This document shows positions 3,237-60,174 of a stretch of DNA of 62,814 nucleotides, piece by piece (position 1 is the stretch's first letter; the number at the start of each line of letters is the position of its first letter). The position numbers were made by a program, and so were the translations under genes. The notes under the pieces were generated by a model. That model made no database searches. It worked only from the letters and a program-made list of their open reading frames with translations, and was not told the DNA's origin. The stretch is from Deltaproteobacteria bacterium (lineage in GTDB: Bacteria > Myxococcota > Myxococcia > SLRQ01): contig JARGFU010000001.1 in NCBI GenBank assembly GCA_029210625.1, forward strand, positions 6,992 to 69,805, in the 5' to 3' direction.

Positions 3237-3468
3237 GGTTGGGTGGAATACGCCCGGCCCCCGTGGATGCCTGTGACTGCGGTCACCCGGCCATCGCTTT
3301 TTCAGCCATCCCCCGATCATGGCGGCGATCATCCTCCCTCGCGGAGGGCGCGCCAGTTTTTGGCGTGATGGGGATCACGGTGAGCCGCGAGCTGTGAGCT
3401 GTGAGCTACGAGCTGTCGGGCCGAGTGGCGCTTCGCAGCCTGGTTGGCAGTTGATATGGAGGCGCCTC

Positions 3469-5076: not shown

Positions 5077-7677
5077 ATGAAGCGGATTCTGGGAGGGATC
5101 GTCTGCCTTCTGCTGCCTGCGCTCGCGCTGGCGCAGGGCAGCGAGGTGCACGAGCAGCCGGACATTCTCCTGGGCGAGGTGACGCTCCCCCTCATCGAGC
5201 GCTCCGAGACCCTGGAGGACCTCCCCCTGGGCGCGTCGCTCTTCGAGGGTACGCTCGGCGGCGCGACCCGCCTCTTCCTGGCGGGCGGCGTCGAGCCGGG
5301 GGGAGTCGGGGAGCGCGCCATCCGCGTCTGGGAGCCGGCGGAGCGGCGCTGGGCGGCGACGGGCCTCTATCTCCCGGGAGAGCTGGTCCCCCGGTCGCCG
5401 GTGAGCGTCACCTGGATCGACCACAGCGCGGGGAGCTTCCTCTCCCTGGGCACCTCGAACCTCCGGGTCGACCCGAGGCCGGCCGCCTTCCTCGACGACC
5501 GGGAGCTCTCCTTCGACACCACCGGTAGCTGCAGCGACCTCGCCGCCGAGACCTCCGCCGCCGGCACCCCCCTGCGGCTGGGCAGCTCCCACTTCTTCAC
5601 CAAGCCGGCCGGGGCCCTGGGCACCCCGGACACCCTGGCCGTCTTCCTCTACCTGGTGGATCCGGACTTCGAGTCCGCCGAGGGCCGCTTCTACAGCGTC
5701 GCGCAGCCCAAGATCGCCACCGGCGCGCCCGACACCATCTGCTTCCAGCGGATCCTCGATCGGATCTCGATCCCCGAGGACCGGGTCTTCGCCTCGGTGC
5801 TCTTCGATCCGACCGCCCGGCAGGGCGAGGGCGCCCTCCTCTTCGCCGGCGGCCAGGGGGTCAGCCAGTCCAGGAACACCACCGCCGTGGCCTACGATCT
5901 CCAGGGCGTGGCCGAGGAGCTCATCGGCTCGGGCTCGAACCAGTCTCCCGAGGCGATGATCCCCCTCGCCGACGGCAGCGGCGTCCTCCTCCTCGTCGAC
6001 GAGGATCCCACCCAGAGGGAGGACGTCCCCGGCCTCGTCGAGGCCCGCTACGACCAGACGAGCGGGCGCTACGAGCTGACCCCCCGGGCCGCGCCGGTCG
6101 GGGTCGGCGGCCAGCCCCCGGCCGGCGTCTACGCCGATGGCTTCGATGCCGGCATGTGGCGCCTGGCCCGGGAGCCCTCCGACGGGACCCTCGTCCTCTA
6201 CGCCCACACCAGCCCGGCCAGCGCCCAGGCCGGTGGCCACGACGTCGACGGCGCCTCCGGGACCCAGAGCGACTACGTCACCCTGCGCGAGGGGACCCTC
6301 GCGCTCTTCGGCCAGACCGAGCACTTCGTGATCTGGCCCCGGCAGTACGGCACCGAGTTCACCTTCCTGCTCACCCTCGACGGCGAGCCCACGGGGCGCT
6401 GGGGGATCGACTACCGCTCGCGGGACGACGGCGTGAACTCCACCCTGGAGTTCGGAAAGATGGACTCCCAGACGCGGGATGACGGCCTCTTCGTCCTCTC
6501 CCTCGAGGGCTACGATCCCGAGGAGTCCTACTTCACCCTCATCGTGCTCGACGGCGGCAACAAGTACCCGGTCCTCGATCTCGACCTGCTGACGACGGTG
6601 CGGGAGCGGGAGAGCGTCTACCGGGGCTTCGGCTGCCAGAGCGGCGGGGGCAGCGGCGGGCTCGCGCTCGTCCTGCTCGCCCTGCTCCTCGCCGGCGCGC
6701 GCCGCCGCCAGGCGCCGGCCCTGCTGCTGGCCGGGCTCCTCCTCTCGGCCTCGCTCCCGGCCCGGGCCGAGGAGGCCCGGGAGGGGCGGCCCCGCCTCGC
6801 CTTCCTCGGGGTGACCCCCGGCGCGGGCGTCGACGCCCTCACCGCCGAGGCCATCAGCGACTACATCCAGACCCTCACCGCCGAGACCCAGGGCTACGAC
6901 GTCATCCGCCTCACCGAGGTGAAGGAGATGCTCGGCTTCGAGGCGCAGAAGCAGCTCCTGGGCTGCGACGAGAGCGGCTGCCTGGCCGACATCGCCGGCG
7001 CCCTCGACGTCGACCGCCTCCTGCGGGCCTCGGTCTCGCGCATCGGCTCGTCGATGATGATCCAGCTGACCCTCCTCGACGGCCGGGAGGCCACCCAGAT
7101 CCGGGCCTCGGGGATGCGCCTGGAGGAGGCCGAGGACGCCGAGCCGGTCCTCGACGTGCTGCCCGAGATCCTCGACGAGGTCTTCCAGGCCGACGAGCGC
7201 TTCGAGGGCAAGCGGGTGAAGGCCCGCAGCCGGCTCGGCAAGAAGCGCGGCTCCCGGGGCTACGTCCCCGAGCACCGCTGGTCTCTCGGCGCGGGCGTCG
7301 ACATCGACGTCGCGAACGGCGGCGGCACGCTGCTGGGCCTCCACGTCGGCTACCGCAGCCGCGTCTTCGGCTTCGGCCTCTCGGTGATGCCGCGCATGGG
7401 GGTGAGCCCCATCGAGGCCTTCACGGTGCCGGTGGGCCTGCGCGCCGAGGTGCGCCTGCGCCTCTTCAAGGCCGGGCCGGTCCACCCCAACCTGGTCCTG
7501 GGCACCACCATGTTCCCCACCGACGCGCTGCTGGCCCGCGCCGGCGTCCACGTCGACGTCGATCTCCACCGCTTCCTGCGCGCCTACGTCGCCCTCGCCG
7601 CCGAGGCGCTCACCGGCAACCAGCCCTTCCACCAGGGCTACGCCGTCCTCTCCGTCGGCGCCGCCTTCGTTCCCTAG
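5077..7677 (+). CDS. Secreted protein with an internal MYXO-CTERM-like segment (around aa 515-545), followed in frame by a second signal-peptide-like segment and a C-terminal domain
   Basis: Signal peptide MKRILGGIVCLLLPALALAQG. An internal RGFGCQSGGGSGGLALVLLALLLAGARRRQ is immediately followed by APALLLAGLLLSASLPARAEE, with no stop and no ATG/GTG/TTG between them (see findings). Confidence 0.6.
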   Translation: MKRILGGIVCLLLPALALAQGSEVHEQPDILLGEVTLPLIERSETLEDLPLGASLFEGTLGGATRLFLAGGVEPGGVGERAIRVWEPAERRWAATGLYLPGELVPRSPVSVTWIDHSAGSFLSLGTSNLRVDPRPAAFLDDRELSFDTTGSCSDLAAETSAAGTPLRLGSSHFFTKPAGALGTPDTLAVFLYLVDPDFESAEGRFYSVAQPKIATGAPDTICFQRILDRISIPEDRVFASVLFDPTARQGEGALLFAGGQGVSQSRNTTAVAYDLQGVAEELIGSGSNQSPEAMIPLADGSGVLLLVDEDPTQREDVPGLVEARYDQTSGRYELTPRAAPVGVGGQPPAGVYADGFDAGMWRLAREPSDGTLVLYAHTSPASAQAGGHDVDGASGTQSDYVTLREGTLALFGQTEHFVIWPRQYGTEFTFLLTLDGEPTGRWGIDYRSRDDGVNSTLEFGKMDSQTRDDGLFVLSLEGYDPEESYFTLIVLDGGNKYPVLDLDLLTTVRERESVYRGFGCQSGGGSGGLALVLLALLLAGARRRQAPALLLAGLLLSASLPARAEEAREGRPRLAFLGVTPGAGVDALTAEAISDYIQTLTAETQGYDVIRLTEVKEMLGFEAQKQLLGCDESGCLADIAGALDVDRLLRASVSRIGSSMMIQLTLLDGREATQIRASGMRLEEAEDAEPVLDVLPEILDEVFQADERFEGKRVKARSRLGKKRGSRGYVPEHRWSLGAGVDIDVANGGGTLLGLHVGYRSRVFGFGLSVMPRMGVSPIEAFTVPVGLRAEVRLRLFKAGPVHPNLVLGTTMFPTDALLARAGVHVDVDLHRFLRAYVALAAEALTGNQPFHQGYAVLSVGAAFVP

Positions 7678-15200: not shown

Positions 15201-15501
15201 CGGGCCGCGCTACGTCGAGGTGGCGACCCGCACCGGCGGCCTGAAGCGCTCGATCTGCTCCAGCAACTGGGGCCAGATCGCCGACGACCTCGGCCTCGAC
15301 GCCTTCGGCGCCCGCACCGAGTTCTTCCTCACCCGCGAGCCGATCCCCTCCACCATCGTGGTGAAGGTCAACGGCGTGACCGTGCAGTCGGCGGGCAACT
15401 GGAGCTACGACGGCAGCACCAACTCGGTCGTCTTCGATCCGGCCGCGGTGCCGGCGCAGGGTGCCACGATCGTCGTCGACTACGATACGATCTGCCGGTA
15501 G
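12256..15501 (+). CDS. Large lipoprotein with multiple Ig-fold repeats of the choice-of-anchor-D/ASH type and a C-terminal von Willebrand factor A domain
   Basis: ATG at 12256 preceded by AGGAG. Lipobox LGTNGCSC. Recurring LENCG/LSNPG/LENIG/VYNIG beta-sandwich signatures. VWA MIDAS motif DNSCSMS (DxSxS). Confidence 0.75.
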   Translation: MNVTMPRTLRSWTTPLILGAVLASFLGTNGCSCDGDGGLGDVKPEILALPNPVVFDRISVNIEASVQLMLKNDGNAVLEITGEPVLAENAEDGETELILRRIMLPVDCGTGAERVDDTPNTVDPGECVSVDVVYIPANLGPDTGTITVQSNDPDTPTLVVPIDAVGAAPDIEVCVLPSACSAESVCYEPGSGPLTMDFGLLQINDTATCPVSINNRGELPLANLDWSFKSGNRRGDYSLDPTDLGSGGDLEPGAGIIVNIEFSPRSGGPKDAVVEITSTDPDEAAVTIHLDGMGDGPKVCPDPFPAIDFGQVIVGTTDSIDVTLENCGTMQLSITAMEVQNQNGTGPSTEFALGAGAPGVPIDLAAGTSAAVPVEFTPPIEGYFTGRLYLESTDPVVPSGWVNIVGEGVVPPSCELQASTSTVSFGTAAPSGLGGTPVEKTLALSNPGELDCTGVTANITAGAAATFSIVGLPAGGPPWTLTPGTVVIFTLAYDPADTTGPDLGTVSFGANELAAPLDVNLTGTPVSAPSCDLAVTPATGNFSFNECALLSFTPRVAQFGAVKMGSDKTLPVSLENIGTRMCTVASATFQAAIPFFPPDPTFTLPNGGVPRVNGVPSANIAPGQVGTIDVLYTPVSEAANCGALWVQTDNVGQPSECLGITPAGDGCYNISMMGQGVRSAIEVIPGDVDFGVITVGCASRDTNVTVYNIGQAPMVLNNIYVDPATAPFSIVSAPPTPHTVPGGGSITIRMKYQPPDTNTHTGLLVLESDAQNGNYFTVPLEGKGTNDPHQTDTFQQLSEPMVDVLWVIDNSCSMSEEQSAIANNGNFFLSHALSLSTDFQIGVTSTDMEDPNHAGHLLGNPKIITRTTPNAVSAFGNNVDLGTGGSATEKGLDATHSALTDPLITDPAANGGFLRDDAKLVVIAVSDEADQSTPPVDFYVDFLKNIKGYRNTDLMSFSAIVGYDEQTNQPSQCTSANGDAASGPRYVEVATRTGGLKRSICSSNWGQIADDLGLDAFGARTEFFLTREPIPSTIVVKVNGVTVQSAGNWSYDGSTNSVVFDPAAVPAQGATIVVDYDTICR

Positions 15502-15523: not shown

Positions 15524-15640
15524 GTGTACGTGCACGTGGACGTGTACGTGCACGACCCTTCGTCCCGGGAATCACGTCGCTGATTCCGGGCGCCCTCCGT
15601 ACACGTCCACGTACACGGACTCTCCCGGGAGCGACCCTAC
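15524..15640. repeat. Composite intergenic element: a (GTGNAC)5 array, a nested hairpin, an inverted (GTNCAC)3 array, then GG and the CTCCCGGGAG palindrome
   Basis: Hexamer arrays read directly from the sequence. The 3' half is homologous to the element at 59255..59320. Confidence 0.8.
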
Positions 15641-15957
15641 CCGGGGACCTTGGGGACCTCGTGCTTCAGGTCCGGCTCGTCGTGCACGAAGGTCAGATGG
15701 AGGGAGCCGCGGGTCCTTCCTTCCGCGGGGGCTGGCGCGCTGCCCGGAAGCTCGTGGATCCGGATCCCCTCCTCGCCCAGGCGGGCGATCAGCTCGCCGA
15801 GCCGCTCGAGCGGTAGCTCGTCGAAGCGCAGCGCCAGCGCGATGTTCGAGAAGAGCTGGAAGTCCTCGATGTAGGCGCCGCAGTCCTGCAGCGCCTCCTC
15901 GACCAGCCGGATGGCCCGGGTCCGCTCGACCCGGGTCGCGCCCTCGAGCCTCTTCAC
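15637..15957 (-). CDS. Hypothetical small protein (106 aa)
   Basis: Clean GC3-biased ORF. Convergent with the upstream large lipoprotein gene. Confidence 0.5.
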   Translation of the reverse strand: MKRLEGATRVERTRAIRLVEEALQDCGAYIEDFQLFSNIALALRFDELPLERLGELIARLGEEGIRIHELPGSAPAPAEGRTRGSLHLTFVHDEPDLKHEVPKVPG

Positions 15958-16017
15958 CCGACCATCCTACCCCTGCGCTCCTGCCGGGTGTCGGACCCTC
16001 GTGCTAGCTTCCCGCGC

Positions 16018-17391
16018 ATGGCGAAAAAGGCTCGCGCGATCTTCTCCTGCACCACCTGCGGTCACCAGGAGCCCAAGTGGCTGGGCCGCTGCCCCGAGTG
16101 CGGCGCCTGGGGCGCCCTGGTCGAGGAGATCGCCGTCAGCAGCAGCAGCGAGAAGGCCGCCGCCCGCTCCCCGGGCCAGGGAGGCCGGCCGGTGCCCCTG
16201 CCCGAGGCGGGGGCCGAGGACTTCCAGCGCCGCTCGACGGGCATCACCGAGCTGGACCGGGTGCTCGGCGGGGGCGTGGTCCCCGGCGCCCTCTCCCTCA
16301 TCGGCGGCGATCCGGGCATCGGCAAGTCCACCCTCATGCTGATGGCGGCCGCGCGCCTGGCGAACGAGCACGGGCCGGTGCTCTACGTCTCCGGCGAGGA
16401 GAGCGTCGCGCAGATCCGCCTGCGGGCCGACCGCCTCGGCCTCGAGGCGCCCACCCTCCACCTGCTGGCCGAGACCGACGGCGAGAAGGTCCTGGCGCAG
16501 GCCTCCGCCATGGAGGGCCTCTGCGCGCTGGTCCTCGACTCGATCCAGACCCTGCACCTGCCCGAGATCTCCTCGGCCCCCGGCTCGGTGAGCCAGGTGC
16601 GCGAGCTCACCGGCCTCTTCCTCGGCTGGTCGAAGCGCCGCGGGGTGCCCACCTTCCTGGTCGGCCACGTCACCAAGGACGGCGCCATCGCCGGGCCGCG
16701 GGTCCTCGAGCACATGGTCGACACGGTCCTCTATTTCGAAGGCGACCGGGGACACGCCTACCGGATCCTGCGCGCCCACAAGAACCGCTTCGGCTCGGCC
16801 GCCGAGATCGGCGTCTTCGAGATGCAGCGCTCGGGCCTGGTCGAGGTCCCCGATCCTTCCGCGGTCTTCCTCGCCGGCCGCCCTGAGGACGCCCCGGGCT
16901 CGGTGGTCACCGCCGCCCTCTCGGGCTCGCGGCCGGTGCTGGTCGAGGTGCAGGCCCTCTGCTCCCAGAGCCCCACCGGCGGCTCGGCGAGGCGCACGGC
17001 CATCGGCGTCGAGAACACCCGCCTGGCCCTGCTCGCCGCGGTCCTCGAGCGGAGGTTGGGCCTGACCCTCTACGATCACGACATCTTCGTGAACGTCGCC
17101 GGCGGCCTCTCCCTCGACGAGCCCGCCGCCGACCTGCCGGTGGCCTGCGCCATCGTCTCCAGCCTGCGCGGCGTGCCCCTCGATCCGCGCACCATCCTCT
17201 TCGGGGAGGTCGGCCTCACCGGCGAGGTGCGGGCGGTGGCCCAGACCGAGCTGCGCCTCTCCGAGGCCGCCAAGCTCGGCTTCAAGACCGCGATCCTCCC
17301 GGCCGATACCCTCGCGCGCCTCACCGAGGATCCCCCCCTGGCGGTGCTGGGGGTCCGCAGCCTCGACGAGGCCCTGGACGCGGCGCTCTAG
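16018..17391 (+). CDS. radA: DNA repair protein RadA/Sms
   Basis: N-terminal zinc ribbon CTTCGHQEPKWLGRCPECGAW. Walker A GGDPGIGKSTL. KNRFG motif. Lon-like C-terminal domain. Confidence 0.9.
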   Translation: MAKKARAIFSCTTCGHQEPKWLGRCPECGAWGALVEEIAVSSSSEKAAARSPGQGGRPVPLPEAGAEDFQRRSTGITELDRVLGGGVVPGALSLIGGDPGIGKSTLMLMAAARLANEHGPVLYVSGEESVAQIRLRADRLGLEAPTLHLLAETDGEKVLAQASAMEGLCALVLDSIQTLHLPEISSAPGSVSQVRELTGLFLGWSKRRGVPTFLVGHVTKDGAIAGPRVLEHMVDTVLYFEGDRGHAYRILRAHKNRFGSAAEIGVFEMQRSGLVEVPDPSAVFLAGRPEDAPGSVVTAALSGSRPVLVEVQALCSQSPTGGSARRTAIGVENTRLALLAAVLERRLGLTLYDHDIFVNVAGGLSLDEPAADLPVACAIVSSLRGVPLDPRTILFGEVGLTGEVRAVAQTELRLSEAAKLGFKTAILPADTLARLTEDPPLAVLGVRSLDEALDAAL

Positions 17392-17418
17392 GAAGATCGG
17401 GTACATTGTAGGCCACCC

Positions 17419-17907
17419 ATGGCCGACGCCCCCGAGAAGACCCCACCCGGAGACCACGACCCCGAGGCGAGCGAGGCCTCCCCCGAGGCCGAGGAGGGAC
17501 GCTCCCCCTCGGGCGCGGACAAGCGCCAGCACCCCCGGGCCAGGCTCTCGCTGCTGGTGCAGTACCGCTTCGCCAGCTTCGACGAGTTCCTCGGCGAGTA
17601 CGCCTCCGACCTCTCCCTGGGCGGGATGTTCATCCGCACCGACGAGCCGAGGCCCTCGGGCTCGATGATCTACCTGCAGTTCTCGCTCAAGGACGGCAGC
17701 ACCCTCATCGAGGGGCTCGGCCGGGTCTGCCACGTGACCGAGCCCGGCGGGGAGCGGCCGGCCGGGATGGGGATCGAGTTCGTGAACTTCGACGAGGCCT
17801 CGCGAGAGCTCATCGAGGGGATCGTCGAGGGGCACCTCTTGGACGGGGGCGAGCCTGAGATCGGTGACGGGGACGGGGACGGGGACGGGGACGGCGCTGG
17901 CCGCTGA
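17419..17907 (+). CDS. PilZ-domain protein with a C-terminal (GD)n tail
   Basis: PilZ motifs are present (QHPRARLSL as RxxxR; DLSLGGMFIRT as DxSxGG). C-terminus ends GDGDGDGDGDGAGR. Confidence 0.7.
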   Translation: MADAPEKTPPGDHDPEASEASPEAEEGRSPSGADKRQHPRARLSLLVQYRFASFDEFLGEYASDLSLGGMFIRTDEPRPSGSMIYLQFSLKDGSTLIEGLGRVCHVTEPGGERPAGMGIEFVNFDEASRELIEGIVEGHLLDGGEPEIGDGDGDGDGDGAGR

Positions 17908-17971: not shown

Positions 17972-19453
17972 ATGGCATCACCCCACGTCGTCGCCATCGA
18001 TCAGGGCACCACCGGCAGCACGGTGCTGGTCCTCGACAAGAAGCTCGAGGTCCGGGGCCGGGCGAACTACGAGTTCCCCCAGCACTTCCCGGGCCCCGGC
18101 CAGGTCGAGCACGACCTCGGCGAGATCTGGAAGAGCGTGCAGCAGGCCCTGAAGAAGGCCCTCGGCCAGGCCGGCGTGAAGGGCAGCGACATCGCGGCCA
18201 TCGGCATCACCAACCAGCGGGAGACCACCTGCCTCTGGCACCGCGGCACCGGCGAGCCGCTGCACCGGGCCATCGTCTGGCAGGACCGCCGCACCGCCGA
18301 GCGCTGCGGGCAGCTGCGCAAGGAGGGCCTCTCGAAGAAGGTGCAGAAGACCACCGGGCTGGTCCTCGACCCCTACTTCAGCGGCACCAAGCTCGAGTGG
18401 CTGCTGAAGAACGTGAAGGGCGCGAAGGCCGCGGCCCGCAAGGGTGACCTGGCCTTCGGCACGATCGACACCTTCCTCGTCTGGAAGCTCACCGGCGGCG
18501 CGGCGCACGTCACGGACGTCACCAACGCCTCGCGCACCCTGCTGATGAACCTCAAGCGCCGCAAGTGGGACCCGGGCATGCTCGAGCTCCTCGGCGTGCC
18601 CGAGGCCGTGCTCCCCGAGATCCGCCCCTCGGCCCAGATCTACGGGACGACCTCCGGCCTGAAGGTGCTGCCCGACGGCATCCCGGTGGCGGGCATGGCC
18701 GGCGACCAGCAGGCCGCCCTCTTCGGCCAGGCCTGCTTCGGCGAGGGCGAGGCGAAGTGCACCTACGGCACCGGCGCCTTCCTCCTGATGAACGTCGGCG
18801 AGAAGGCGGTCTACTCGAAGAACGGCCTGCTCTCCACGGTCGCCTGGGAGGTGGACGGCAAGGCCGCCTACGCCCTCGAGGGCTCGGTCTTCATCGCCGG
18901 CGCGGCGGTGCAGTGGCTGCGGGACGGCCTGAAGTTCTTCAAGTCGGCCCCCGAGATCGAGGCCCTGGCCCGCAGCGTCCCCGACGCGAACGGCGTGGTC
19001 TTCGTCCCGGCGCTCGCCGGCCTCGGCGCCCCCCACTGGCGCCCCGAGGCGCGGGGGCTCCTCTGCGGCCTCGAGCGCAGCACCACCCGCGCTCACCTGG
19101 CCCGGGCGGCCCTCGAGGGCATCGCCCTCTCGGTCCACGACCTCGCCGCCGCCATGCAGAAGGACGCGGGGGGCAAGATGCCCCGCTTCAAGGTCGACGG
19201 CGGCGCCTGCCAGAACGACCTCCTGATGCAGTTCCAGGCCGATCTGTTGAACGTGCCGGTGGTGCGCCCGGAGATGATCGAGACCACGGCGCTCGGCGCC
19301 GCCTTCCTGGCCGGCCTCTCGACCGGCGTGTGGGGCAGCACCGCTGCCATCAAGCGCGCCTGGAAGAGCGACCGCACCTTCAAGCCCGCCATGCGGGCGT
19401 CCGTGCGCGAGGCTCACCTCGCCCGGTGGCGCTCGGCGGTGGAGAGAGCATGA
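17972..19453 (+). CDS. glpK: Glycerol kinase
   Basis: FGGY kinase motifs (AIDQGTTGS, GITNQRETT, WQDRRT, FGTIDT). Length is full. Confidence 0.9.
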   Translation: MASPHVVAIDQGTTGSTVLVLDKKLEVRGRANYEFPQHFPGPGQVEHDLGEIWKSVQQALKKALGQAGVKGSDIAAIGITNQRETTCLWHRGTGEPLHRAIVWQDRRTAERCGQLRKEGLSKKVQKTTGLVLDPYFSGTKLEWLLKNVKGAKAAARKGDLAFGTIDTFLVWKLTGGAAHVTDVTNASRTLLMNLKRRKWDPGMLELLGVPEAVLPEIRPSAQIYGTTSGLKVLPDGIPVAGMAGDQQAALFGQACFGEGEAKCTYGTGAFLLMNVGEKAVYSKNGLLSTVAWEVDGKAAYALEGSVFIAGAAVQWLRDGLKFFKSAPEIEALARSVPDANGVVFVPALAGLGAPHWRPEARGLLCGLERSTTRAHLARAALEGIALSVHDLAAAMQKDAGGKMPRFKVDGGACQNDLLMQFQADLLNVPVVRPEMIETTALGAAFLAGLSTGVWGSTAAIKRAWKSDRTFKPAMRASVREAHLARWRSAVERA

Positions 19454-19761
19454 GCGACGCGAAGCAAAAAAGCCCCAAGGGCGTGCAGCTCCAGATCAAG
19501 GTCGACGAGGACGTCGCGCAGGGCATCTACGCCAACATGGCGATGGTGCACCACACCGACGCCGAGTTCACCATCGACTTCGTCTACGTGCAGCCCCAGG
19601 CCCCCCAGGCCAAGGTGCGCAGCCGGGTGGTGACCTCTCCGAGGCACCTCAAGCGGCTGATCTCGGCGCTGCAGGACAACCTCAACAAGTACGAGGCGAA
19701 GTTCGGCGAGGTGGACATGGCGGCCGCGCCACCGCCGGTGGCGAGCCCCTTCAAGCACTGA
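19450..19761 (+). CDS. DUF3467-family small protein
   Basis: ATG at 19450 overlaps the glpK stop. Contains GIYANMAMVHHTDAEFTIDF. Confidence 0.65.
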   Translation: MSDAKQKSPKGVQLQIKVDEDVAQGIYANMAMVHHTDAEFTIDFVYVQPQAPQAKVRSRVVTSPRHLKRLISALQDNLNKYEAKFGEVDMAAAPPPVASPFKH

Positions 19762-19762
19762 G

Positions 19763-19828
19763 TCGAGCTGCGAGCTGTGAGCTGTGAGCCAGGTTGCTCA
19801 TTGCTCACAGCTCATAGCTGACAGCTAC
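19763..19828. terminator. Imperfect long hairpin built on (GAGCTGT) repeats between convergent genes; candidate bidirectional terminator
   Basis: gagctgtgagctgtgagc, then a loop, then gctcacagctcatagctgacagct. Stem is at least 11 bp. The same 18-mer occurs at 3389..3406. Confidence 0.45.
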
Positions 19829-23319: not shown

Positions 23320-23575
23320 CTGTAGGTAGCGCCCAACCGAATAGAACCGATGGTCGCGTACCCGCTCCTCCCGAGACGAGGAGGGGGACGCCGCCAGGCT
23401 CGATGCTGGGGCCTGGTGAGGGAAGCCGGTCGAACGCCGGCGCGGTCCCGCCACTGTAGCCCTCTGATACCCGCTCCATTCGAGCCACTCGTGTCCTTGC
23501 ACGCGGGGAAGGCGGAGCGGGCGCTTCATCCGGAGGGGAGCCAGGAGACCTGATCCTCGGTCAGCCACGCAGCAC
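23320..23575 (+). ncRNA. Cobalamin (AdoCbl) riboswitch
   Basis: Conserved core GGGAAGCCGGTcgaAcgCCGGCGCGGTCCCGCCACTGTAgcc. B12-box-like GAGCCAGGAGACCTG at 23538..23552. Sits in the leader of a TonB-dependent receptor. Confidence 0.8.
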
Positions 23576-23592: not shown

Positions 23593-25599
23593 TTGGCTCC
23601 CTTGTCTGTACCCCGCCAACCTGCGCTCCTTCCCGGACGCAGGTCTTTTTGTTCGCCCTCCCGAGCCCGGCCCCACGCCGGCGCGCTCGGCGTCGCGCTC
23701 GCCCTGCTCGGCCTCCTGCCGGCCGGGCTGCGGGCCCAGGAGGACGACGCGCCGGTGGTGGACGAGGTGCCCGAGACCGTGGTGCGCGCCCGCGCGCCGG
23801 GCGAGGCCGAGGCGAAGGCCCCCACCGCGGCGCACTACGCGGTCTCCCTGCGCGAGCGCAGCGAGGTCGACGCCGATCTCGGCGCGGCCCTCGAGGGGCT
23901 GCCGCCGGTGGGGCTGCACCGCTACGGCGGGGGGCTGACCACCTTCTCCCTGCGCGGCAGCGCCTCGCACCAGACCCGGGTCGAGATCGGGGGCGTCCCC
24001 CTCACCCCCCTCGGCGGCGGCTCGGTGGATCTCTCGGGCCTCGACCCCGCCCTCTTCTCCCGGGCCGAGGTGATCGCCGGCCCCCAGGGCGCCGCCTTCG
24101 GCACCGGCGCCCTCGGCGGCGTGCTCTCCCTCTCGCCCTGGCCCGAGGCCCGGGGCGGGCCCCGCACCGAGCTCGAGCTGAAGACCGGCAACCACCACCG
24201 CGCCTCCCTCGCCCTGCGCCAGGCCCTCGGCGAGGGCGGGCGCCTTGCGCTCACCGCCGGGCACGAGGGGGGCGACTTCCTCTTCGAGCGCGATCTCACG
24301 CCCAACCTCCCGGACGATCCCTGGATCACCGAGCGCCGCGTCAACAACGCCCGCCGGGAGGGGAGCGTGCTGCTCACCGCGCGGCGGCGGCTGGCGGGCG
24401 GCAAGGCCCAGCTCATCGCCCTGGGGACGCAGCGCCGGCTCGAGCTGCCCGGGCCGGTGGGCTTCCCCACCCCGGGCGCGGGGGCCGAGAGCCGCCGGGC
24501 GCTCCTGGGCGCCTTCTTCGAGGGGCGCTCGCGGGGCGCGGGGAGCCTGCGGCCGAGGGTGCGGCTCCACGTTCGCCAGGAGCACCTCGAGCTCTGGCCG
24601 GGCTCGACGCCCCTGCCGGGCGCCGCCGCCCCCCAGCGCTCCGAGCTGCGCGAGGGCGGCGCGCTCACCGAGGCCGAGCTGCTCCTCGGCGCGCACCTCC
24701 TCACCCTGGGGGGCGCCCTCGAGGGCAGCCAGCTCGCCGGTGAGCTGCGGGCCGGGCGGGTGGTCGGCGCGCTCCACCTGCGCGATCGCGTCTACCTCCT
24801 CGAGGGCCGCCTCCTCCTCTCGGGCGCGGCGCGGCTGGACCTCCCCGGCGATCAGCCCCTCCAGCCCTCCGCAGCCCTGGGGGTCACCTGGACGCTCCAC
24901 GAGTCCCTCGAGCTCCAGGCCAACCTCGGGCGCAGCGTGCGGCTCCCGACCCTGACCGAGCTGCACCGCGAGGGCCCGCTGACCGCCGCCAACCCCGGGC
25001 TCGTGCCCGAGTCGGCCGTCGCCGGGGACCTGGGCCTGCGGCTCTCGCTCTTCCGCCGGCGAGTGGAGCTCGGGCTCTCGGGCTTCCTCTCCCGCTACGC
25101 CGACCTGATCACCTACGAGCTCTACCCGCCGCTCAAGATGCGCGCGACCAACCTGCGCGCCGCCCTCGTCGCCGGCGTGGAGAGCCGCCTGGTGCTCGCC
25201 CCGGGGGGCGGCTTCTCGGCCGAGCTCTCCCACGCCCTCACCCACTCCCGGGTGCTGGGCGACGATCCCAACGAGCGCGGCAAGCCCCTGCCCTACCGCC
25301 CGGCGCAGAGGGGCCACCTGCGCCTCGCCCTCGAGCGCGGCCCCCTCACCGGCCACCTCGGGGTCGAGGCCCGCAGCCAGCTGCGCCGCAACCGGGCCGG
25401 CACCAAGACCCTCCCGGCGCGGGCGCTCCTCTCGGCCGGCCTGCGCGGCCGCCTGGGTCCCGGCTGCTCCCTCGCCCTCCAGCTCGACAACCTCCTCGAC
25501 GACCGCCGGCAGGAAGACGTCCACGGCTACCCCCTGCCCGGCCGCACCCTCCTCACCTCTCTGCGTTGCGCCTTCGGCGCGAAAGGAAACGATCGATGA
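23593..25599 (+). CDS. TonB-dependent outer-membrane receptor (BtuB-like, riboswitch-controlled)
   Basis: Signal peptide. TonB-box region and plug domain are present (RYGGGLTTFSLRGSASHQTRVEIGGVPL). Long beta-barrel region. No ATG in the leader; start is probably TTG at 23593 or 23602. Confidence 0.8.
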   Translation: MAPLSVPRQPALLPGRRSFCSPSRARPHAGALGVALALLGLLPAGLRAQEDDAPVVDEVPETVVRARAPGEAEAKAPTAAHYAVSLRERSEVDADLGAALEGLPPVGLHRYGGGLTTFSLRGSASHQTRVEIGGVPLTPLGGGSVDLSGLDPALFSRAEVIAGPQGAAFGTGALGGVLSLSPWPEARGGPRTELELKTGNHHRASLALRQALGEGGRLALTAGHEGGDFLFERDLTPNLPDDPWITERRVNNARREGSVLLTARRRLAGGKAQLIALGTQRRLELPGPVGFPTPGAGAESRRALLGAFFEGRSRGAGSLRPRVRLHVRQEHLELWPGSTPLPGAAAPQRSELREGGALTEAELLLGAHLLTLGGALEGSQLAGELRAGRVVGALHLRDRVYLLEGRLLLSGAARLDLPGDQPLQPSAALGVTWTLHESLELQANLGRSVRLPTLTELHREGPLTAANPGLVPESAVAGDLGLRLSLFRRRVELGLSGFLSRYADLITYELYPPLKMRATNLRAALVAGVESRLVLAPGGGFSAELSHALTHSRVLGDDPNERGKPLPYRPAQRGHLRLALERGPLTGHLGVEARSQLRRNRAGTKTLPARALLSAGLRGRLGPGCSLALQLDNLLDDRRQEDVHGYPLPGRTLLTSLRCAFGAKGNDR

Positions 25600-26768
25600 T
25601 CTTCAGGCTCTCCCGGACCTCCGGGCTCCTCCTCCTCCCCCTCCTCCTCCCCCTCCTCCTCTCCCTCGCCTGCGGCGAGCCCACCGACGGCGGAGACGAC
25701 GGCGGCGGCACCGACGGGGGCGGCGGCGCGCCGGCCTTCGCCGTCGATCGCACCCTCTCGCTGGGCAGCTGCCTCAACGCGGGCGCGGTGACCGTCGAGG
25801 GCGGCAAGGCCTACGTGGCCTGCGGCGGGGACTTCACCGGCAACGGCGAGGTGGCCGTGGTCGATCTCGCCACCTGGACCATCGAGCAGCACATCGCCGT
25901 GGGCGGCGCGCCCGGCTCGATCACCGTCTCCGGTGACCGGATCTACCTCGGTGACATGCTCGACGGCCGGGTGCTGGTGGCCGGCACCGACGGCAGCGTC
26001 ATCCACGGCGCCGCCGACGCCGTGGTGATCTGCCCCTCGGACTTCGTCAACAACGTCTTCCAGTTCGTCCCCGACGTGGTGAAGATCGGAGACGTGCTCT
26101 ACGCCAGCTGCTTCGCCACCGACGAGGTGATCGCCTTCCAGCCCTCTGCCGGTGCGGATCCCGGCGACGGAACCCTCAACGCGACGATCCTCGGCCGGGT
26201 GACGGCCGGCGACGGCATCTCGGCCCTCGAGCCCTGGCACGCCAACGACCTGGTCGGCCTCGAGAACCTCTCCGGCGCGGCCTCCCACATCGGCACCGAT
26301 CCCCTCGGCGCCTCCACCAACTACTGGACCTGCGGCGATGTCCCCAACGATCTGAGGATCGAGGACGGCCTGGCCCACGTGGTGAACTCCGGCTCGAACA
26401 CCCTCCAGGTGATCGACCTCTCCGCCGTCTCCACCACCGCCGAGGTGCACCTGGGCGACGGCGCCAGCCCCTGGTCCCTGGCCCTCCTCGCCGACGGCCG
26501 CACCGCGGTCACCCTCCAGGGCACCGACGAGGTCGCCATCGTCGACACCGACCCCGCGACCCCGGCGAGCGAGGCGGTGCAGCAGACCGTGGCGATGCCC
26601 TCCGGCGCCGCGCTCGAGCCCTTCACCGGCATGACGCCCCTGGCCCACCCGCAGGGCATCGCGGTCACCGGCGCCGATCGCCTGGTGGTCTCGCTGACCA
26701 ACTTCGACGCGAACTTCGCCATCGCCGCGCCCGGGATGCTGGTCGAGCTGGTGGAGAGCACCCCCTGA
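25596..26768 (+). CDS. Surface/periplasmic lipoprotein, predicted beta-propeller (YVTN/NHL-like repeats)
   Basis: ATG at 25596 (ATGA overlap with the upstream receptor gene). AAAGGAAAC ribosome-binding site. Lipobox LLSLACG. Repeated G..V.V.D blade-like segments. Confidence 0.65.
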   Translation: MIFRLSRTSGLLLLPLLLPLLLSLACGEPTDGGDDGGGTDGGGGAPAFAVDRTLSLGSCLNAGAVTVEGGKAYVACGGDFTGNGEVAVVDLATWTIEQHIAVGGAPGSITVSGDRIYLGDMLDGRVLVAGTDGSVIHGAADAVVICPSDFVNNVFQFVPDVVKIGDVLYASCFATDEVIAFQPSAGADPGDGTLNATILGRVTAGDGISALEPWHANDLVGLENLSGAASHIGTDPLGASTNYWTCGDVPNDLRIEDGLAHVVNSGSNTLQVIDLSAVSTTAEVHLGDGASPWSLALLADGRTAVTLQGTDEVAIVDTDPATPASEAVQQTVAMPSGAALEPFTGMTPLAHPQGIAVTGADRLVVSLTNFDANFAIAAPGMLVELVESTP

Positions 26769-26938
26769 AGGATCGACGCGCCAGCCGGCGAGGGCCCCTG
26801 CGGGCCCTGCTGATCCTGACCCTCGCCGCGGGCCTCGCGCCCGCGGCCGGGGCCGCGCCGCGGGAGCCCTCCCGCCTGGGGCCGCCCCCCCCCGAGGTCC
26901 CGCACCGGATCGTCACCATCGCCCCGAGCCTCACCGAG

Positions 26939-27679
26939 GTGCTCATCGCCCTGGGCGCGGCCGATCGCATCGTGGGGGTGAGCCGCTACGACGAGTTCCC
27001 CGAGGTGGCGAAGGTCACCCGCATCGGCGGCTACGTGGACCCGGACCTCGAGACCATCCTCGGGCTGCGGCCCGATCTGGTGGTCGCCGAGCCGAGCCCG
27101 GGCAACGAGCGGGTGGTGCGCAAGCTCGCCTCCCTGGGGATCCCGGTCCGGGTGGTCCACGGGGCCTCGCTGGCCGAGCTGCGGCTGCAGGTCGAGGCCC
27201 TGGCCCGGGACCTGGGCCGCCCCGAGGCGGGCGTCCGCCTCCTCGAGACCCTGGAGGAGCGCCGGCTGCGGGTTCAGCTGGCCCTGGCCGGCGCCGCGCC
27301 CCGCCGCGCGCTGCTGGTGGTGGGGCACGAGCCCCTGGTGGTGGCCGCCCCCGGCTCGCTGGCCCACGAGCTCCTCGAGCTCTCGGGCGCGACGAACGTC
27401 GTCCCCCCGAGCGCCTCGCCCTATCCGGTCTACGCCCTCGAGGCCGCCATCGCCGCCGAGCCGGAGGTGGTCCTCGACTTCTCGGGCCGCCCCCTCTCCG
27501 AGCGCCCCGCCTCCCTCGCCACCCTCGGCGCGGTGAAGGCCGGGCGCTGGGTGCAGCTGGCCGACACCTCGCTCCTGCGGCCCGGGCCGGAGGTGATGCA
27601 CGCGGTCGAGGTGATGGCCCGCCGCCTCCACCCCGGCCGCTTCCCCCGGCCGCGCGCCCCGGAGGGCGAGCAGCCTTGA
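26939..27679 (+). CDS. Periplasmic substrate-binding protein of an ABC importer, BtuF/FhuD class; true start upstream at about 26771
   Basis: PBP class-III motifs (RIVTIAPSLTEVLIALGAADRIVGV). In the same frame upstream there is a Tat-like signal (RRASRRGPLRALLILTLAAGLAPAAG) with no ATG/GTG; CTG at 26765 is possible. Confidence 0.7.
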   Translation: MLIALGAADRIVGVSRYDEFPEVAKVTRIGGYVDPDLETILGLRPDLVVAEPSPGNERVVRKLASLGIPVRVVHGASLAELRLQVEALARDLGRPEAGVRLLETLEERRLRVQLALAGAAPRRALLVVGHEPLVVAAPGSLAHELLELSGATNVVPPSASPYPVYALEAAIAAEPEVVLDFSGRPLSERPASLATLGAVKAGRWVQLADTSLLRPGPEVMHAVEVMARRLHPGRFPRPRAPEGEQP

Positions 27680-28743
27680 GCACCCACGACACGGCCGCCG
27701 GACCCTCGGCCCCCGGCGCCCGCCTCACGGCCGGCCGCTTCCTGGGCTGGATGATCCTGCTCCTCGCGCTCCTCCTCGGGGCGATGATCCTGGCGCTCCT
27801 CCTGGGCAGCACCGAGCTCTCCCTGGGCGCGGCCCTGGAGGGGGCGGGCCCGGCCCGGGTGGTGCTCCTCGAGGTGCGCCTGCCCAGGGTGCTCCTCGGC
27901 GCGCTGGTGGGCGCGGGGCTGGGCGCCTCGGGCGCGGCCCTCCAGGCCATCCTGCGAAACCCCCTGGCCGACCCCTTCATCCTCGGCGTGAGCGGCGGCG
28001 CGGCGCTCGGCGGCACCGTGGCCCGGGCGCTGGCCACCGGCCTCTTCGGGGTGGCCGGGGGCACCCTCTGGCTGGGCCTGGGCTCCCACCTGGCCGCCAC
28101 CGCCGGCGCCCTCGGGGCGGTGGCCCTCACCTTCGGCATCGCCCGCGGCGCCGGCGGCGCCCGCCCCTACGCCCTGCTGCTGGCCGGGGTCGTCCTCAAC
28201 GCCTTCGCCTCGGCCCTGATCCTCTTCCTGCGGGCGGCGGTAGCCCAGGACAAGGCGCAGGAGCTGCTCTACTGGCTCATCGGCAGCCTGGGCTACCCGA
28301 CCCCCCTCGAGCTCGCCTCGGTGGCCGTGCTGGTGATCTGCGGCGGCGTCCTCCTCTCCCTCCTCGGCGGCACCCTGAACGTGCTCGCCCTCCAGGATCG
28401 CGGGGCGGCGGTGCTGGGCATCGACGCCGAGCGGATGCGCCTGCTGGTGATCGTCCTGACCTCGGTGATCGTCGGCACCACCGTCTCGCTCGCCGGCCTG
28501 GTGGGCTTCGTGGGCCTGATGGTGCCCCACTTCCTGCGCCTGCTGACCGGCCCCGACCACCGCCTGCTCCTCCCGGCGAGCCTCCTGGGCGGCGGCGCCT
28601 TCCTGGTGCTGGCCGATCTCTCCGCTCGCCTGCTATTTCGCTTCCTGGGCACCGAGCCCCCGGTGGGGGTGGTCACCGCCTTCCTCGGGGGGCCCTTCTT
28701 CCTCTGGCTCATGCGCCGACGCGGTGGGAGCACCCTCACATGA
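27676..28743 (+). CDS. ABC importer permease, FecCD/BtuC family
   Basis: FecCD signature (LAGVVLNAFASALILFL and related). 9-10 TM helices. ATGA overlap with the upstream gene. Confidence 0.85.
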   Translation: MSTHDTAAGPSAPGARLTAGRFLGWMILLLALLLGAMILALLLGSTELSLGAALEGAGPARVVLLEVRLPRVLLGALVGAGLGASGAALQAILRNPLADPFILGVSGGAALGGTVARALATGLFGVAGGTLWLGLGSHLAATAGALGAVALTFGIARGAGGARPYALLLAGVVLNAFASALILFLRAAVAQDKAQELLYWLIGSLGYPTPLELASVAVLVICGGVLLSLLGGTLNVLALQDRGAAVLGIDAERMRLLVIVLTSVIVGTTVSLAGLVGFVGLMVPHFLRLLTGPDHRLLLPASLLGGGAFLVLADLSARLLFRFLGTEPPVGVVTAFLGGPFFLWLMRRRGGSTLT

Positions 28744-29948
28744 CGAAGCGAAACGCCCTCTGGATGGCCCTCTTGCTCCTCGCCCTGGGAGGCCTGGCCG
28801 CCCTCGCGCGCCTCTCCGGCGAGGCGCCGCCCACCCCGGCCGGTGACGACGGGCAGACCCGGACCGACGCCGGCGCCGAGGCCTCACCACAGGCGGTGGT
28901 GGACCCCTCCCGCGAGTCCCTCCAGAGCCTGCGCAACAACCCGCCCCGGCGGATCGACGCCCACACCCACGTGGCGCCCGGCGATCTCGATGCGTTCATG
29001 AAGATCATGGAGGCCGCGGGCATCGACGGGATCGTGAACTTCTCGGGCGGCTTCCCGGGCGGCGGGCTGGAGCAGCAGCTCGAGGCCGCGGCGCGCTACC
29101 CCCACCGGGTCGCGGTGATGATGAACCTCGACTGGCGCAGCTTCGGCCGGCCCGGCTGGGTCGAGGCCCAGGTCGCGGCCCTGGAGCAGGGCAAGGCCCT
29201 GGGCGCCGCCGGCCTGAAGATCAGCAAGGCCCTGGGTCTGGGCGTGCGGCACCCCGACGGCAAGCTGCTCGCGGTCGACGATCCCCTCCTCGATCCGATC
29301 TTCGAGGCCTGCGGCCGGCTGGGCCTCCCGGTGGCGATCCACACCGGAGACCCCCGCGCCTTCTTCGACGCCCCCACCCCCGAGAACGAGCGCTACCTCG
29401 AGCTGCAGAAGAACCCGGGCTGGTCCTTCCACGGCAAGGACTTCCCGGAGTGGCGGGCGCTGCGCGAGGCCTTCCTCGCCCGCATCGGCCGCCACCCGAA
29501 GACCACCTTCATCGGCGTGCACTTCGGCAACTCCCCGGAGGACCCGCGCTGGGTGGCCGACGTGATGGACCAGTTCCCCAACCTCTACATCGACACCGCC
29601 GCCCGCCTGCCCGAGGTGCTGCGGCAGGAGGACCCCGTGCGCTGGCGCGAGACCCGGCGGGTCTTCGATCGCCACACCGAGCGGGTGCTCTTCGGCAGCG
29701 ACTCGATGCAGATGGGGGGCGAGCTGATCCTGGGCGCGCCCGGCGCCCGCAAGATGCACCGCACCGACGCCGCGGTCTTCTTCCGCACCCACTGGCGCCT
29801 CTTCCAGACCTCCGACTTCGACGTCCCCTCGCCCTCCCCGATCCAGGGCAAGTGGCCCCTGCGAAGCCTGGGGCTGAAGCGCAACCACCTCGAGCCCTTC
29901 TACCATGGCACCGCCGAGCGCCTCTTCCCCCAGCTCGCCACCCCCTGA
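28740..29948 (+). CDS. Exported metal-dependent amidohydrolase (Amidohydro_2-like TIM barrel) inserted inside the B12-transport operon
   Basis: N-terminal signal or anchor (LWMALLLLALGGLAALA). Metal ligands IDAHTHV, VAIHTGDP, GVHFGNS, LFGSDS. Confidence 0.75.
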   Translation: MTKRNALWMALLLLALGGLAALARLSGEAPPTPAGDDGQTRTDAGAEASPQAVVDPSRESLQSLRNNPPRRIDAHTHVAPGDLDAFMKIMEAAGIDGIVNFSGGFPGGGLEQQLEAAARYPHRVAVMMNLDWRSFGRPGWVEAQVAALEQGKALGAAGLKISKALGLGVRHPDGKLLAVDDPLLDPIFEACGRLGLPVAIHTGDPRAFFDAPTPENERYLELQKNPGWSFHGKDFPEWRALREAFLARIGRHPKTTFIGVHFGNSPEDPRWVADVMDQFPNLYIDTAARLPEVLRQEDPVRWRETRRVFDRHTERVLFGSDSMQMGGELILGAPGARKMHRTDAAVFFRTHWRLFQTSDFDVPSPSPIQGKWPLRSLGLKRNHLEPFYHGTAERLFPQLATP

Positions 29949-30777
29949 GCTGGCGCGGATCGAGGGGCTCGCCTTCGCCTACCCCGGCGGGCGCACCCTC
30001 TTCGCGGACCTCACGCTCGAGGTCCGGGGCGGCGAGCTCCTCGGCGTCCTCGGCCCCAACGGCGCGGGCAAGAGCACCCTCCTCTCGCTCCTCTGTGGCC
30101 TGGCGCGGCCGGCGGCCGGCCGCCTCTTCCTCGGCGGGGATCCCCTCGAGGGGCTCTCGCGCCGGGAGCTGGCTCGCCGGATCGCCCTGGTCCCCCAGGA
30201 CGTGGGCGCGGCCTTCCCCTTCACCGTCCTCCAGACGGTCCTCCTCGGGCGCACCCCCCACCTCGGTCCCCTGGGCATCGAGCGAGCCGAGGACCTCGAG
30301 CGGGCCGAGGCGGTCCTCGAGGAGACCGGCCTCTCGGCGCTGCGCGACCGCCCCATCGACGCCCTCTCGGGGGGCGAGCGGCAGCGGGTGCTGATCGCGC
30401 GGGCGCTCTGCCAGGACACCCCCCTGCTCGCCTGCGACGAGCCCACCTCGCACCTGGACATCCACCACCAGGTGAAGACCTACGACCTCTTCCATCGCCT
30501 GACCCGCGATCCGGCGCGGGGCGCCCTCTGCGTCCTGCACGACCTCAACCTCGCGGCGGCCTACTGCGACCGCATCCTCCTCCTCGACGCCGAGGGGAGG
30601 CAGGCCGCCCTCGGCCCCACCGAGGAGGTGCTCTCCTACGCCCTGCTCAAGGAGGTCTACCGCACCGAGATCTGGGTGGGCGTGAACGAGCTCACCGGCG
30701 CCCTGACCCTGGCCCCGGTCGCCGGGCATGATCGGGCGCCGCCGCCGGTTGGAGGTGGCCGGGTGGGGGATCGATGA
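29905..30777 (+). CDS. ABC transporter ATP-binding protein (BtuD/FecE class)
   Basis: Walker A GPNGAGKST. ABC signature LSGGERQRV. Walker B LLACDEPTSHLD. Confidence 0.85.
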   Translation: MAPPSASSPSSPPPELARIEGLAFAYPGGRTLFADLTLEVRGGELLGVLGPNGAGKSTLLSLLCGLARPAAGRLFLGGDPLEGLSRRELARRIALVPQDVGAAFPFTVLQTVLLGRTPHLGPLGIERAEDLERAEAVLEETGLSALRDRPIDALSGGERQRVLIARALCQDTPLLACDEPTSHLDIHHQVKTYDLFHRLTRDPARGALCVLHDLNLAAAYCDRILLLDAEGRQAALGPTEEVLSYALLKEVYRTEIWVGVNELTGALTLAPVAGHDRAPPPVGGGRVGDR

Positions 30778-30800
30778 AATAGGCTCCTTGAGTAGAGGCG

Positions 30801-38472: not shown

Positions 38473-38652
38473 GGTGGAGCTCCTCGTGCGGTCGGCGGCG
38501 CATTCGCCTGCCCGCGGCATCCTACCTTCTTCGCGACGCACGGGGGGTCTTCGCGCGCGCCCCCATCGATCCGCTATGATTCCGGGTGTTCCCTCCGGCA
38601 GCCTCGCCCCACCTCGCGAGAGGCTCTTCCGGAGGGAGAGGAGGAGCGCACC

Positions 38653-57509: not shown

Positions 57510-57528
57510 GTATGGGGATGATCTGGAG

Positions 57529-57602: not shown

Positions 57603-57635
57603 ATAGCTTCGTATTCGTCTTTTTGGTGGCGCCAG

Positions 57636-59236: not shown

Positions 59237-59254
59237 GGGCGGGCAACCTACTGC

Positions 59255-59320
59255 AAACCAGCCGCCCCCGTACACGTCCACGTCCACGTGCACGTCCACG
59301 GCCTCTCCCGGGAGAGCCCT
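59255..59320. repeat. (GTNCAC)5 hexamer array + GG + CTCTCCCGGGAGAG palindrome; second copy of the 15524..15640 element family
   Basis: cgtacacgtccacgtccacgtgcacgtccacggcctctcccgggagagccctgcgcccc, aligned by eye to 15597..15640. Confidence 0.8.
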
Positions 59321-59331
59321 GCGCCCCGGCC

Positions 59332-60174
59332 CTACTCGTCCCGCTGCTCGAGGATCTTCGCGAACTTCAGGATGGCGCCGAGGATGCCCGTCGCGGAGCG
59401 GCTCTGCAGGCCGGCGTCGCCCAGCTCCTTCCCCTCCTTCGGGTGAGAGAGGAAGCCCAGCTCGACCAGCACGGCCGGCATCTTCGCCCCGTTGAGCACC
59501 GCGAAGGGCGCTTGCCGCACCCCACGATCGGGGAAGCCGGTGGCCTCGACCAGGGCCTCCTGCACGATGTGAGCGAGGCGGGAGGAGTCCTGGTGCGCGG
59601 CGCTCACCTGCAGATCGTAGAGGATCGCGTCGAGGGGGTTGGCCGAGGCCATCTCGTCCTGCGAGAGGGGCTCGCCGTTCTCGTACTCGGCCAGGCGGCG
59701 GGCCGCCTCGTCGGTGGAGTCGGCGGAGAGGAAGAAGGTCTCCGCGCCTCGCACCTTCCGGCCCTCGGGACCGTAGGGCATCGAGTTGCAGTGGATCGAG
59801 ATGAAGAGGTCGGCCTCGGCGTCGTTCGCCTTCTGCACGCGGTCGCGCAGCTCGACGTCCTCGTCCCCGGGCCGGGTCTCGATCACCTGATAGCCGCTGG
59901 CGAGCAGCCGGATCTTGAGCGCCTGCACCACGCTGGCGGCGATGTCCTTCTCGATGAGGTCGCCGCGGACCGCGCCGAACTTCGCGCCGCCGTGGCCGGC
60001 GTCGAGGGCGACCAGCAGCCTGCGCTTCGGCTCCGCCTCCGGAATCGTCGTGGAGCCACCCTCGCCCGGCGCCGGCAGGGTCACCACCGCGACCTCCTCG
60101 GCCGCCACCGGGGCGGACGAGAGCAAGAGCAGCGTTGCGCCGACGAGGCCGGCGGCTCGGGCGAGGGGCTTCAC
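59332..60174 (-). CDS. N-acetylmuramoyl-L-alanine amidase (Amidase_3, AmiC-like), secreted
   Basis: Signal peptide. Amidase_3 zinc-ligand region (VALDAGHGG and ISIHCNS). GTG start. Confidence 0.8.

Follow-up and report, generated by a model that had tools for sequence, protein, structure and literature searches.

A Candidate REP-like Hairpin Element Built on Tandem GTNCAC Hexamers at Two Intergenic Sites of a Myxococcota-like Bacterium

Two intergenic loci of the DNA analysed here (the window, i.e., the whole stretch of 62,814 nt with a GC content of 72%) carry short arrays of a GTNCAC hexamer adjoining a palindrome, and the unique sequences flanking these arrays are common to both loci. The reading favoured here, for and against which the chances appear evenly balanced, is that of a REP-like interspersed hairpin element on tandem hexamers, specific to its lineage, whose hairpin would lie at transcript 3′ ends. 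The RNase PH and RadA proteins encoded in the window are closest to proteins of uncultured ‘Deltaproteobacteria’/Myxococcota, the nearest non-self relatives being 72–84% identical. Myxococcota genomes are large and have a high GC content and, to our knowledge, classic terminators are scarce and intergenic repeats have been little studied in this phylum.

Results

Structure and Neighbourhood of the Two Loci

Both loci are extragenic, being located between called genes with their arrays outside annotated ORFs, and their neighbourhoods agree with the preliminary description, which placed one of them between convergent genes and the other between an amidase gene and rph (Table 1). Locus 1 fills the gap between the gene of a 1278-aa Ig-like/ASH protein (plus strand, TAG at 15499–15501) and a minus-strand ORF (15637–15957, 106 aa), and both neighbours present their stops to it; arm 1 starts 22 nt 3′ of the stop of the plus-strand gene, and the 3′ flank of the module overlaps the stop codon of the minus-strand ORF (15637–15639). 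The two arms are complementary unit for unit in pairs such as GTGGAC:GTCCAC and GTGTAC:GTACAC. The 106-aa ORF is an orphan with no Pfam match and with no homologue or counterpart in the relatives; its third-position GC (GC3, used throughout the window to tell real ORFs from spurious ones) is 0.94, which is coding-like, and the convergent status of locus 1 hinges on this GC3 argument. The gene beyond this ORF is that of RadA (15988–17391, plus strand); a 622-aa minus-strand ORF opposite it (15967–17835) was rejected on GC3 as a spurious artefact.

Locus 2 is bounded by the stop codon of an Amidase_3 gene (59332–59334) and the ATG of the RNase PH gene (59236–59234), both on the minus strand, in an operon with the order amidase–rph–Ham1. 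On this strand the array is upstream of rph, its near end being 33 nt from the ATG, and 11 nt separate the end of the 3′ flank from the amidase stop. The preliminary description had the second copy begin at 59255; the array and the palindrome are present there as claimed, but the first 15 nt of that interval are non-repeat flank and the array itself begins at 59270. Four tandem tRNA genes are located on the minus strand (57437–57802) just downstream of the amidase–rph–Ham1 operon.

Table 1. Coordinates of the sequence features of the two loci in the window.
Feature	Position	Strand	Sequence or basis
Locus 1, hexamer array arm 1, five units	15524..15553	-	GTGTAC GTGCAC GTGGAC GTGTAC GTGCAC on the plus strand; (GTNCAC)5 on the minus strand
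Locus 1, inner stem-loop	15564..15590	.	CCCGGGAATCA-cgtcgc-TGATTCCGGG; about 10 bp with one bulge; between both arrays; includes TCCCGGGA
Locus 1, 5′ flank of the module	15591..15598	+	CGCCCTCC; local alignment; locus 2 counterpart CGCCCCC
Locus 1, hexamer array arm 2, three units	15599..15616	+	GTACAC GTCCAC GTACAC
Locus 1, 3′ flank of the module	15617..15638	+	GG-A-CTCTCCCGGGAG-CG-A-CCCT; palindrome 15620–15631
Locus 2, segment missing from relatives	59247..59336	-	flanked by a direct repeat, CCTACT (plus) / AGTAGG (minus)
Locus 2, 5′ flank of the module	59263..59269	+	CGCCCCC; sequence and local alignment
Locus 2, solo hexamer array, five units	59270..59299	+	GTACAC GTCCAC GTCCAC GTGCAC GTCCAC
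Locus 2, 3′ flank of the module	59300..59320	+	GG-C-CTCTCCCGGGAGAG-CCCT; perfect 14-nt palindrome 59303–59316

Statistics and Relatedness of the Two Copies

The hexamer arrays and the palindrome are present at both loci as first described. A search of the window for (GTNCAC)3 with at most one mismatch gave seven overlapping matches, all of them in the three arrays, versus 0.00 in 100 shuffles, and (GTNCAC)2 matched ten times, always within the arrays (0.02 expected). The 12-mer palindrome taken alone is not significant (seven matches with at most one mismatch, 3.35 expected). Three of the four TCCCGGGA octamers of the window are inside the two loci (15563–15570, 15623–15630 and 59306–59313) and the fourth is at 5372–5379; their total is not enriched (3.94 expected), and the copy in the inner hairpin of locus 1 is outside the module shared by the loci.

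The junction CACGG-N-CTCTCCCGGGAG-NG is exact at both loci, and their local alignment reads CGCCC(T)CC-GTACACGTCCACGT...CACGG(A/C)CTCTCCCGGGAG(C/A)G(A)CCCT. Both therefore have in common a flank 5′ of the array, CGCCC(T)CC (7–8 nt), and a unique flank of about 20 nt 3′ of it, GG-N-CTCTCCCGGGAG-NG-(A)CCCT, in which 19 of the 22 post-array positions are identical. Since unique flanks, and not just the arrays, are common to both loci, the two are homologous copies and not independent microsatellites; the copy containing arm 2 of locus 1 (15599–15616) and the copy at locus 2 are related by descent. On the minus strand, the parts follow one another in an order common to both copies: a TAG stop, a spacer of 5 nt (locus 1) or 15 nt (locus 2), CTC(T)CCCGGGAGAG, NCC, (GTGNAC)n and GG(A/G)GGGCG. 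A profile built from the two copies found no third or degenerate copy in the 62.8-kb window.

Comparison with Related Genomes

The synteny of amidase, rph and Ham1 is kept in two relatives, L122 and L123, whose RNase PH proteins are 73% and 84% identical to that of the window, respectively. The amidase–rph spacer is 95 nt long in the window versus 45 nt in L122 and 19 nt in L123, and the spacers of both relatives contain no array and no palindrome, i.e., the site is empty. As these syntenic relatives have short spacers without the element, locus 2 is a lineage-specific gain of about 80 nt. The synteny of the RadA region, comprising genes of Ig-like proteins, RadA, a PilZ protein and an FGGY kinase, is also kept in relatives; in one of them (L125), the orthologous Ig-like gene is followed by an ordinary GC stem-loop, GACGCCCGGC...GCCGGGCGTC, where the window has the array hairpin. 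No intergenic hexamer or heptamer arrays were found in about 53 kb of the relatives’ sequence.

Predicted Folding and RNA Families

The predicted fold of locus 1 (161 nt) is strong on both strands: at −81.2 kcal/mol, the minus-strand fold (z = −3.2) was matched by none of 200 shuffles, and the plus strand gives −73.3 kcal/mol (z = −2.7). The minus-strand RNA would have 20 continuous pairs that include U-G wobbles, which correspond to A-C mismatches on the opposite strand. The junctions between units give the self-complementary tetranucleotide ACGT, so that a single array can fold on itself and opposed arrays can pair unit for unit. The solo array of locus 2 folds on itself weakly; the fold of this locus is no better than that of shuffled sequence (z = −0.86), which makes the case for a structural role weak there.

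A scan with consensus promoters and terminators gave no site at either locus, and no U-tract follows the hairpins there, so that neither locus fits the classic intrinsic terminator; what they have in common with it is a GC-rich hairpin close behind a stop codon. GC hairpins without U-tracts also occupy further convergent gaps of the window. The preliminary description preferred a mobile structure or an array of binding sites to a simple terminator; this wording went too far, considering that the copies stand 5–22 nt after stops, that the hairpins of locus 1 are strong and that a relative has an ordinary GC-rich stem-loop. No Rfam family matches either locus at gathering thresholds; permissive searches returned only repeat-derived miRNA models (14–21 bits, cut-offs 60–90) and an IRES model (10 bits, cut-off 60), and locus 2 has no match.

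Hexamer Arrays in Other Genomes

A scan for (GTNCAC)4, using one genome per species, found at least 120 loci. Among the 120 matches listed, 55 bear the label Myxococcota or ‘deltaproteobacterium’, several of them coming from the same MAG. Application of a crude GC3 gene caller to these 55 loci and the window (67 arrays) placed 56 of the 67 arrays in intergenic regions; for 24 of the 67, another array in inverted orientation lies at most 200 nt away, and by these crude gene calls the ratio of convergent to divergent gaps is about 12 to 5. A strand bias of the arrays relative to the upstream gene was considered for the other genomes and dropped (about 15 to 8, not significant). Hexamer arrays also occur sporadically in many phyla among the matches listed, and rarely in viral contigs.

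One family belongs to a single Myxococcales MAG (L041, L057, L074 and L105), in which all four loci read ...AACTGAC(GTCCAC)5, with exactly five units each; three of the four are full (GTGGAC)5-loop-(GTCCAC)5 hairpins, and all four sampled copies are located 2–22 nt after stop codons. Pairs of loci from the same genome share 94 nt at 92.6% (L041/L074 of this MAG), a 76-nt element at 92% (L081/L114) and a 99-nt flank at 99% between loci 2.2 Mb apart (L046/L093); L021/L054 and L017/L094 are further pairs of dispersed hexamer-array elements. The similarity within a genome is confined to the element (40–100 nt), the neighbouring genes being unrelated. Several Myxococcota genomes have, in this way, their own dispersed array families with conserved loops or flanks.

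The palindrome of the window is absent beside the arrays of all 120 other loci listed, and its role as a general partner of such arrays was dropped on this ground. The exact junction pattern CACGTNCACGGNCTCTCCCGGGAG has no matches in metagenome contigs, and neither plasmids nor phages matched locus 1 in a BLAST search. No description of GTNCAC arrays was found in the literature searched, and the only analogue found was the TAACTGA repeats discussed below.

Other Repeats and Features of the Window

The window contains a second short-unit repeat, the heptamer (GAGCTGN)n, with seven matches versus 0.31 expected. A solo array of this family (3380–3416) precedes a SpoIID-like gene (ATG at 3469) by 53 nt, and an inverted pair (19765–19826) lies between convergent genes, a small plus-strand ORF (19452–19762) and a matrixin-like gene, forming a 17-bp hairpin of −41 kcal/mol over 65 nt; the small ORF has no Pfam match and is syntenic with a DUF3467 gene in relative L124. 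This layout of one solo array and one inverted pair mirrors that of the hexamer family, and the two heptamer arrays share no flanks. A (CGGGGA)5.5 array (17862–17894) was set aside as coding and not an intergenic element; its product is a (Gly-Asp)5 stretch at the C-terminal end of a PilZ-domain protein.

Coding tandem repeats were observed in two large convergent ORFs without Pfam matches (37837–40452, plus strand, and 40523–42586, minus strand), with units rich in Cys codons (TGC): those at 39273–39932 have a 66-nt period (a 198-nt reference matches eight times, with overlaps, at steps of 66 nt), and those at 40642–41924 have units of about 220–320 nt. A cobalamin riboswitch (23419–23551, 69.9 bits) precedes genes (23593–32078) whose products contain the domains of a TonB-dependent receptor, a periplasmic binding protein, a FecCD permease, an amidohydrolase, an ABC ATPase and, weakly, a TonB C-terminal domain.

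Discussion

Alternative Explanations

The two loci might represent a MITE-like non-autonomous element mobilised by a transposase whose gene is located elsewhere in the genome, in which case the hairpins and the position beside stop codons would be by-products of tolerated insertion. We regard this as unlikely, even though the empty site at locus 2 in the relatives agrees with it, as does the dispersal of short array-bearing repeats among unrelated flanking genes in other Myxococcota genomes. It would also account for the 6-nt direct repeat at locus 2, where AGTAGG (minus strand) occurs at 59247–59252 and 59331–59336, 84 nt from start to start, around an insert of 78 nt. This repeat may be a target duplication or a coincidence. 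Both of its TAG triplets are in the reading frame of the amidase gene; the repeat includes the stop codon and could have arisen by chance, and no direct repeat of this kind accompanies locus 1. The ends of the locus 2 insert (GCCGGGGCG... and ...GGCTGGTTTGC) are not complementary by inspection, i.e., they form no terminal inverted repeats; none of the approximately 50 ORFs of the window encodes a transposase or Y1/RAYT domain, and the array families of other genomes show no obvious target-site duplications. Like the Correia/NEMIS MITEs, locus 2 is a small non-coding insertion, present or absent between relatives, close to gene ends and possibly carrying hairpins that affect transcripts, but terminal inverted repeats were not found, it is doubtful that the direct repeat is a target duplication, and an IS element from which the insertion could derive was not identified. 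The earlier suggestion of a REP/MITE-like mobile structure is nevertheless reasonable because the copies are homologous, locus 2 is absent in two relatives and analogous repeats exist in Myxococcota; what found no support is its MITE side, as there are no terminal inverted repeats and the direct repeat around the locus 2 insert is questionable.

The preliminary description also proposed an array of binding sites. In such a cluster, the palindrome CTCTCCCGGGAGAG would be the operator of a dimeric regulator and the array a reiterated platform on DNA or RNA, similar to what has been proposed for the TAACTGA repeats (PMC4679880), which provide a precedent. The palindrome of locus 2 is perfect, three quarters of the TCCCGGGA octamers of the window are inside the two loci, and the solo arrays precede start codons by 33 nt (hexamer) and 53 nt (heptamer). 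This explanation appears improbable all the same: a period of 6 bp does not keep step with the turn of the DNA helix, so that neighbouring sites face nearly opposite sides of B-DNA, the base at the N position is unconstrained, and no protein partner was identified. Moreover, the palindrome adjoins the arrays in 0 of the 120 other loci listed, the metagenome collection lacks the exact junction and relatives with the same operon do not conserve the site.

Independent microsatellites, produced by local slippage and by template switching between arms, with neither a common origin nor a function, are very unlikely. They would explain the differing numbers of units (five, three and five) and the sporadic presence of pure hexamer arrays across many phyla, viral contigs included, and the heptamer arrays of the window are indeed without common flanks. 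However, slippage cannot yield 3′ flanks identical at 19 of 22 positions together with a common 5′ flank, and the units are heterogeneous (GTACAC, GTCCAC, GTGCAC), unlike those of young slippage arrays.

Hardly credible is an element that is translated or controls translation, in which the palindrome would give a Shine–Dalgarno-like (SD-like) GGGAGAG 3 nt before the first GUG, open to sequestration by CUCUCCC, and the array would encode a (Val-X)n peptide of 14 codons (locus 1) or an N-terminal extension of RNase PH (locus 2, ORF 58493–59299): GGGAGAG-NCC-GUG is present in both copies, the array of locus 2 is in frame with rph with no stop between them, and the gain or loss of 6-nt units leaves the reading frame intact, but the RNase PH homologues are 237–247 aa long and align from the annotated ATG, the codons between array and ATG have a low GC3 (TTT GCA GTA GGT), an open frame of 21 codons is unremarkable at 72% GC and the array families of other genomes have no SD-like motif. 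The frame-preserving length of the unit and the position of the arrays outside annotated ORFs also bear on a phase-variable contingency repeat, a type in which changes of repeat number switch a promoter or a reading frame.

Several other ideas were dropped. Z-DNA was rejected as the commonest unit, GTCCAC, breaks the purine–pyrimidine alternation; arrays of restriction or methylation sites (GTNNAC) do not fit the neighbouring arrays of other genomes; parS-like CACGTG cores have no parS flanks; and a Rho-utilisation site disagrees with the G-rich character of the strand transcribed after the stops and with the shortness of the arrays.

Comparison with Known Repeats and Terminators

The favoured reading, a REP-like hairpin element, has its model in the REP and BIME sequences, which are repetitive extragenic palindromes of Enterobacteria and Pseudomonas that make upstream mRNA more stable and allow the genes of an operon to be expressed differentially. 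REPs are imperfect palindromes of 20–40 nt that lack an internal tandem repeat, number in the hundreds and are tied to RAYT (Y1) transposases. The elements described here resemble them in being short, extragenic, dispersed and able to form stem-loops, in occurring singly or as inverted pairs, and in being concentrated at the 3′ ends of genes, within operons and between convergent genes. They differ in that the stems of the window are tandem hexamer arrays of variable length, present as two copies and with no RAYT in the 62.8-kb window; such a gene could be located in another part of the genome.

Intrinsic terminators without U-tracts have been proposed for high-GC bacteria, and the loci are similar to these in having, about 25 nt or less from a stop, a GC-rich hairpin that lacks a U-tract, a relative having an ordinary hairpin at the same position. 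Ordinary terminators are unique sequences, whereas the stems of these putative terminators are tandemly repeated and the module is duplicated.

The cyanobacterial STRR sequences are intergenic tandem repeats of heptamers. The arrays of the present study share with them, and with the TAACTGA repeats, units of 6–7 nt in arrays of two to tens of copies, the reuse of one unit at many intergenic loci per genome, a patchy phylogenetic spread and a suggested regulatory role; the GTNCAC unit, the period and the taxon (a Myxococcota-like host) are different, which makes the arrays an analogue and not a member of these families. The TAACTGA direct repeats are intergenic in Beggiatoaceae, Cyanobacteria and Bacteroidetes (MacGregor 2015, PMC4679880), mostly only a few nucleotides upstream of start codons, with one indirect repeat versus 169 direct sets (PMC4679880). 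In contrast, the GTNCAC arrays adjoin stop codons, are frequently inverted pairs and carry conserved unique flanks.

A Possible Mode of Action and Spread

The REP-like hairpin reading may be put together as follows. The module, on the minus strand AGGG - CTC(T)CCCGGGAGAG - NCC - (GTGNAC)n - GG(A/G)GGGCG, has been copied to at least two intergenic sites beside stop codons, locus 1 having also a second, inverted array. Opposed or self-folding arrays would form long hairpins in RNA or in single-stranded DNA, and such hairpins would most likely mark or protect transcript 3′ ends, as in the case of REP/BIME and of the U-tract-less terminators of high-GC bacteria. Locus 1 could serve the transcript ends between its convergent genes, and locus 2 could supply an intercistronic hairpin between the amidase gene and rph. 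The number of units (three versus five) might drift by replication slippage; transposition in trans, template switching and gene conversion are candidate mechanisms of copying.

A function at 3′ ends is probable by analogy with REP/BIME, with the ordinary hairpin at the orthologous site of L125 and with the hairpins in further convergent gaps of the window. Proximity to stop codons and enrichment in convergent gaps are also expected of neutral insertions that survive where they are least harmful. As for the term ‘interspersed family’, it refers to two copies of the module (n = 2) in the 62.8-kb window and is extended by analogy with other genomes.

Significance

It is possible, though on balance doubtful, that the two loci are one small family in an undescribed class of ‘tandem-hexamer hairpins’ that is enriched in Myxococcota; its genome-specific versions would combine (GTNCAC)n stems with a loop or flank of conserved sequence, would stand immediately after stop codons, would spread by copying and perhaps would act as portable modules for transcript ends or RNA processing. 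A two-copy family alone is of limited consequence; the apparent abundance of array hairpin families in Myxococcota is what deserves attention. A portable tandem-hexamer hairpin would combine features of REPs and of short-tandem-repeat arrays, adding a type to the known repeats, and such modules could aid the annotation of transcript ends in Myxococcota and would supply strain-variable markers.
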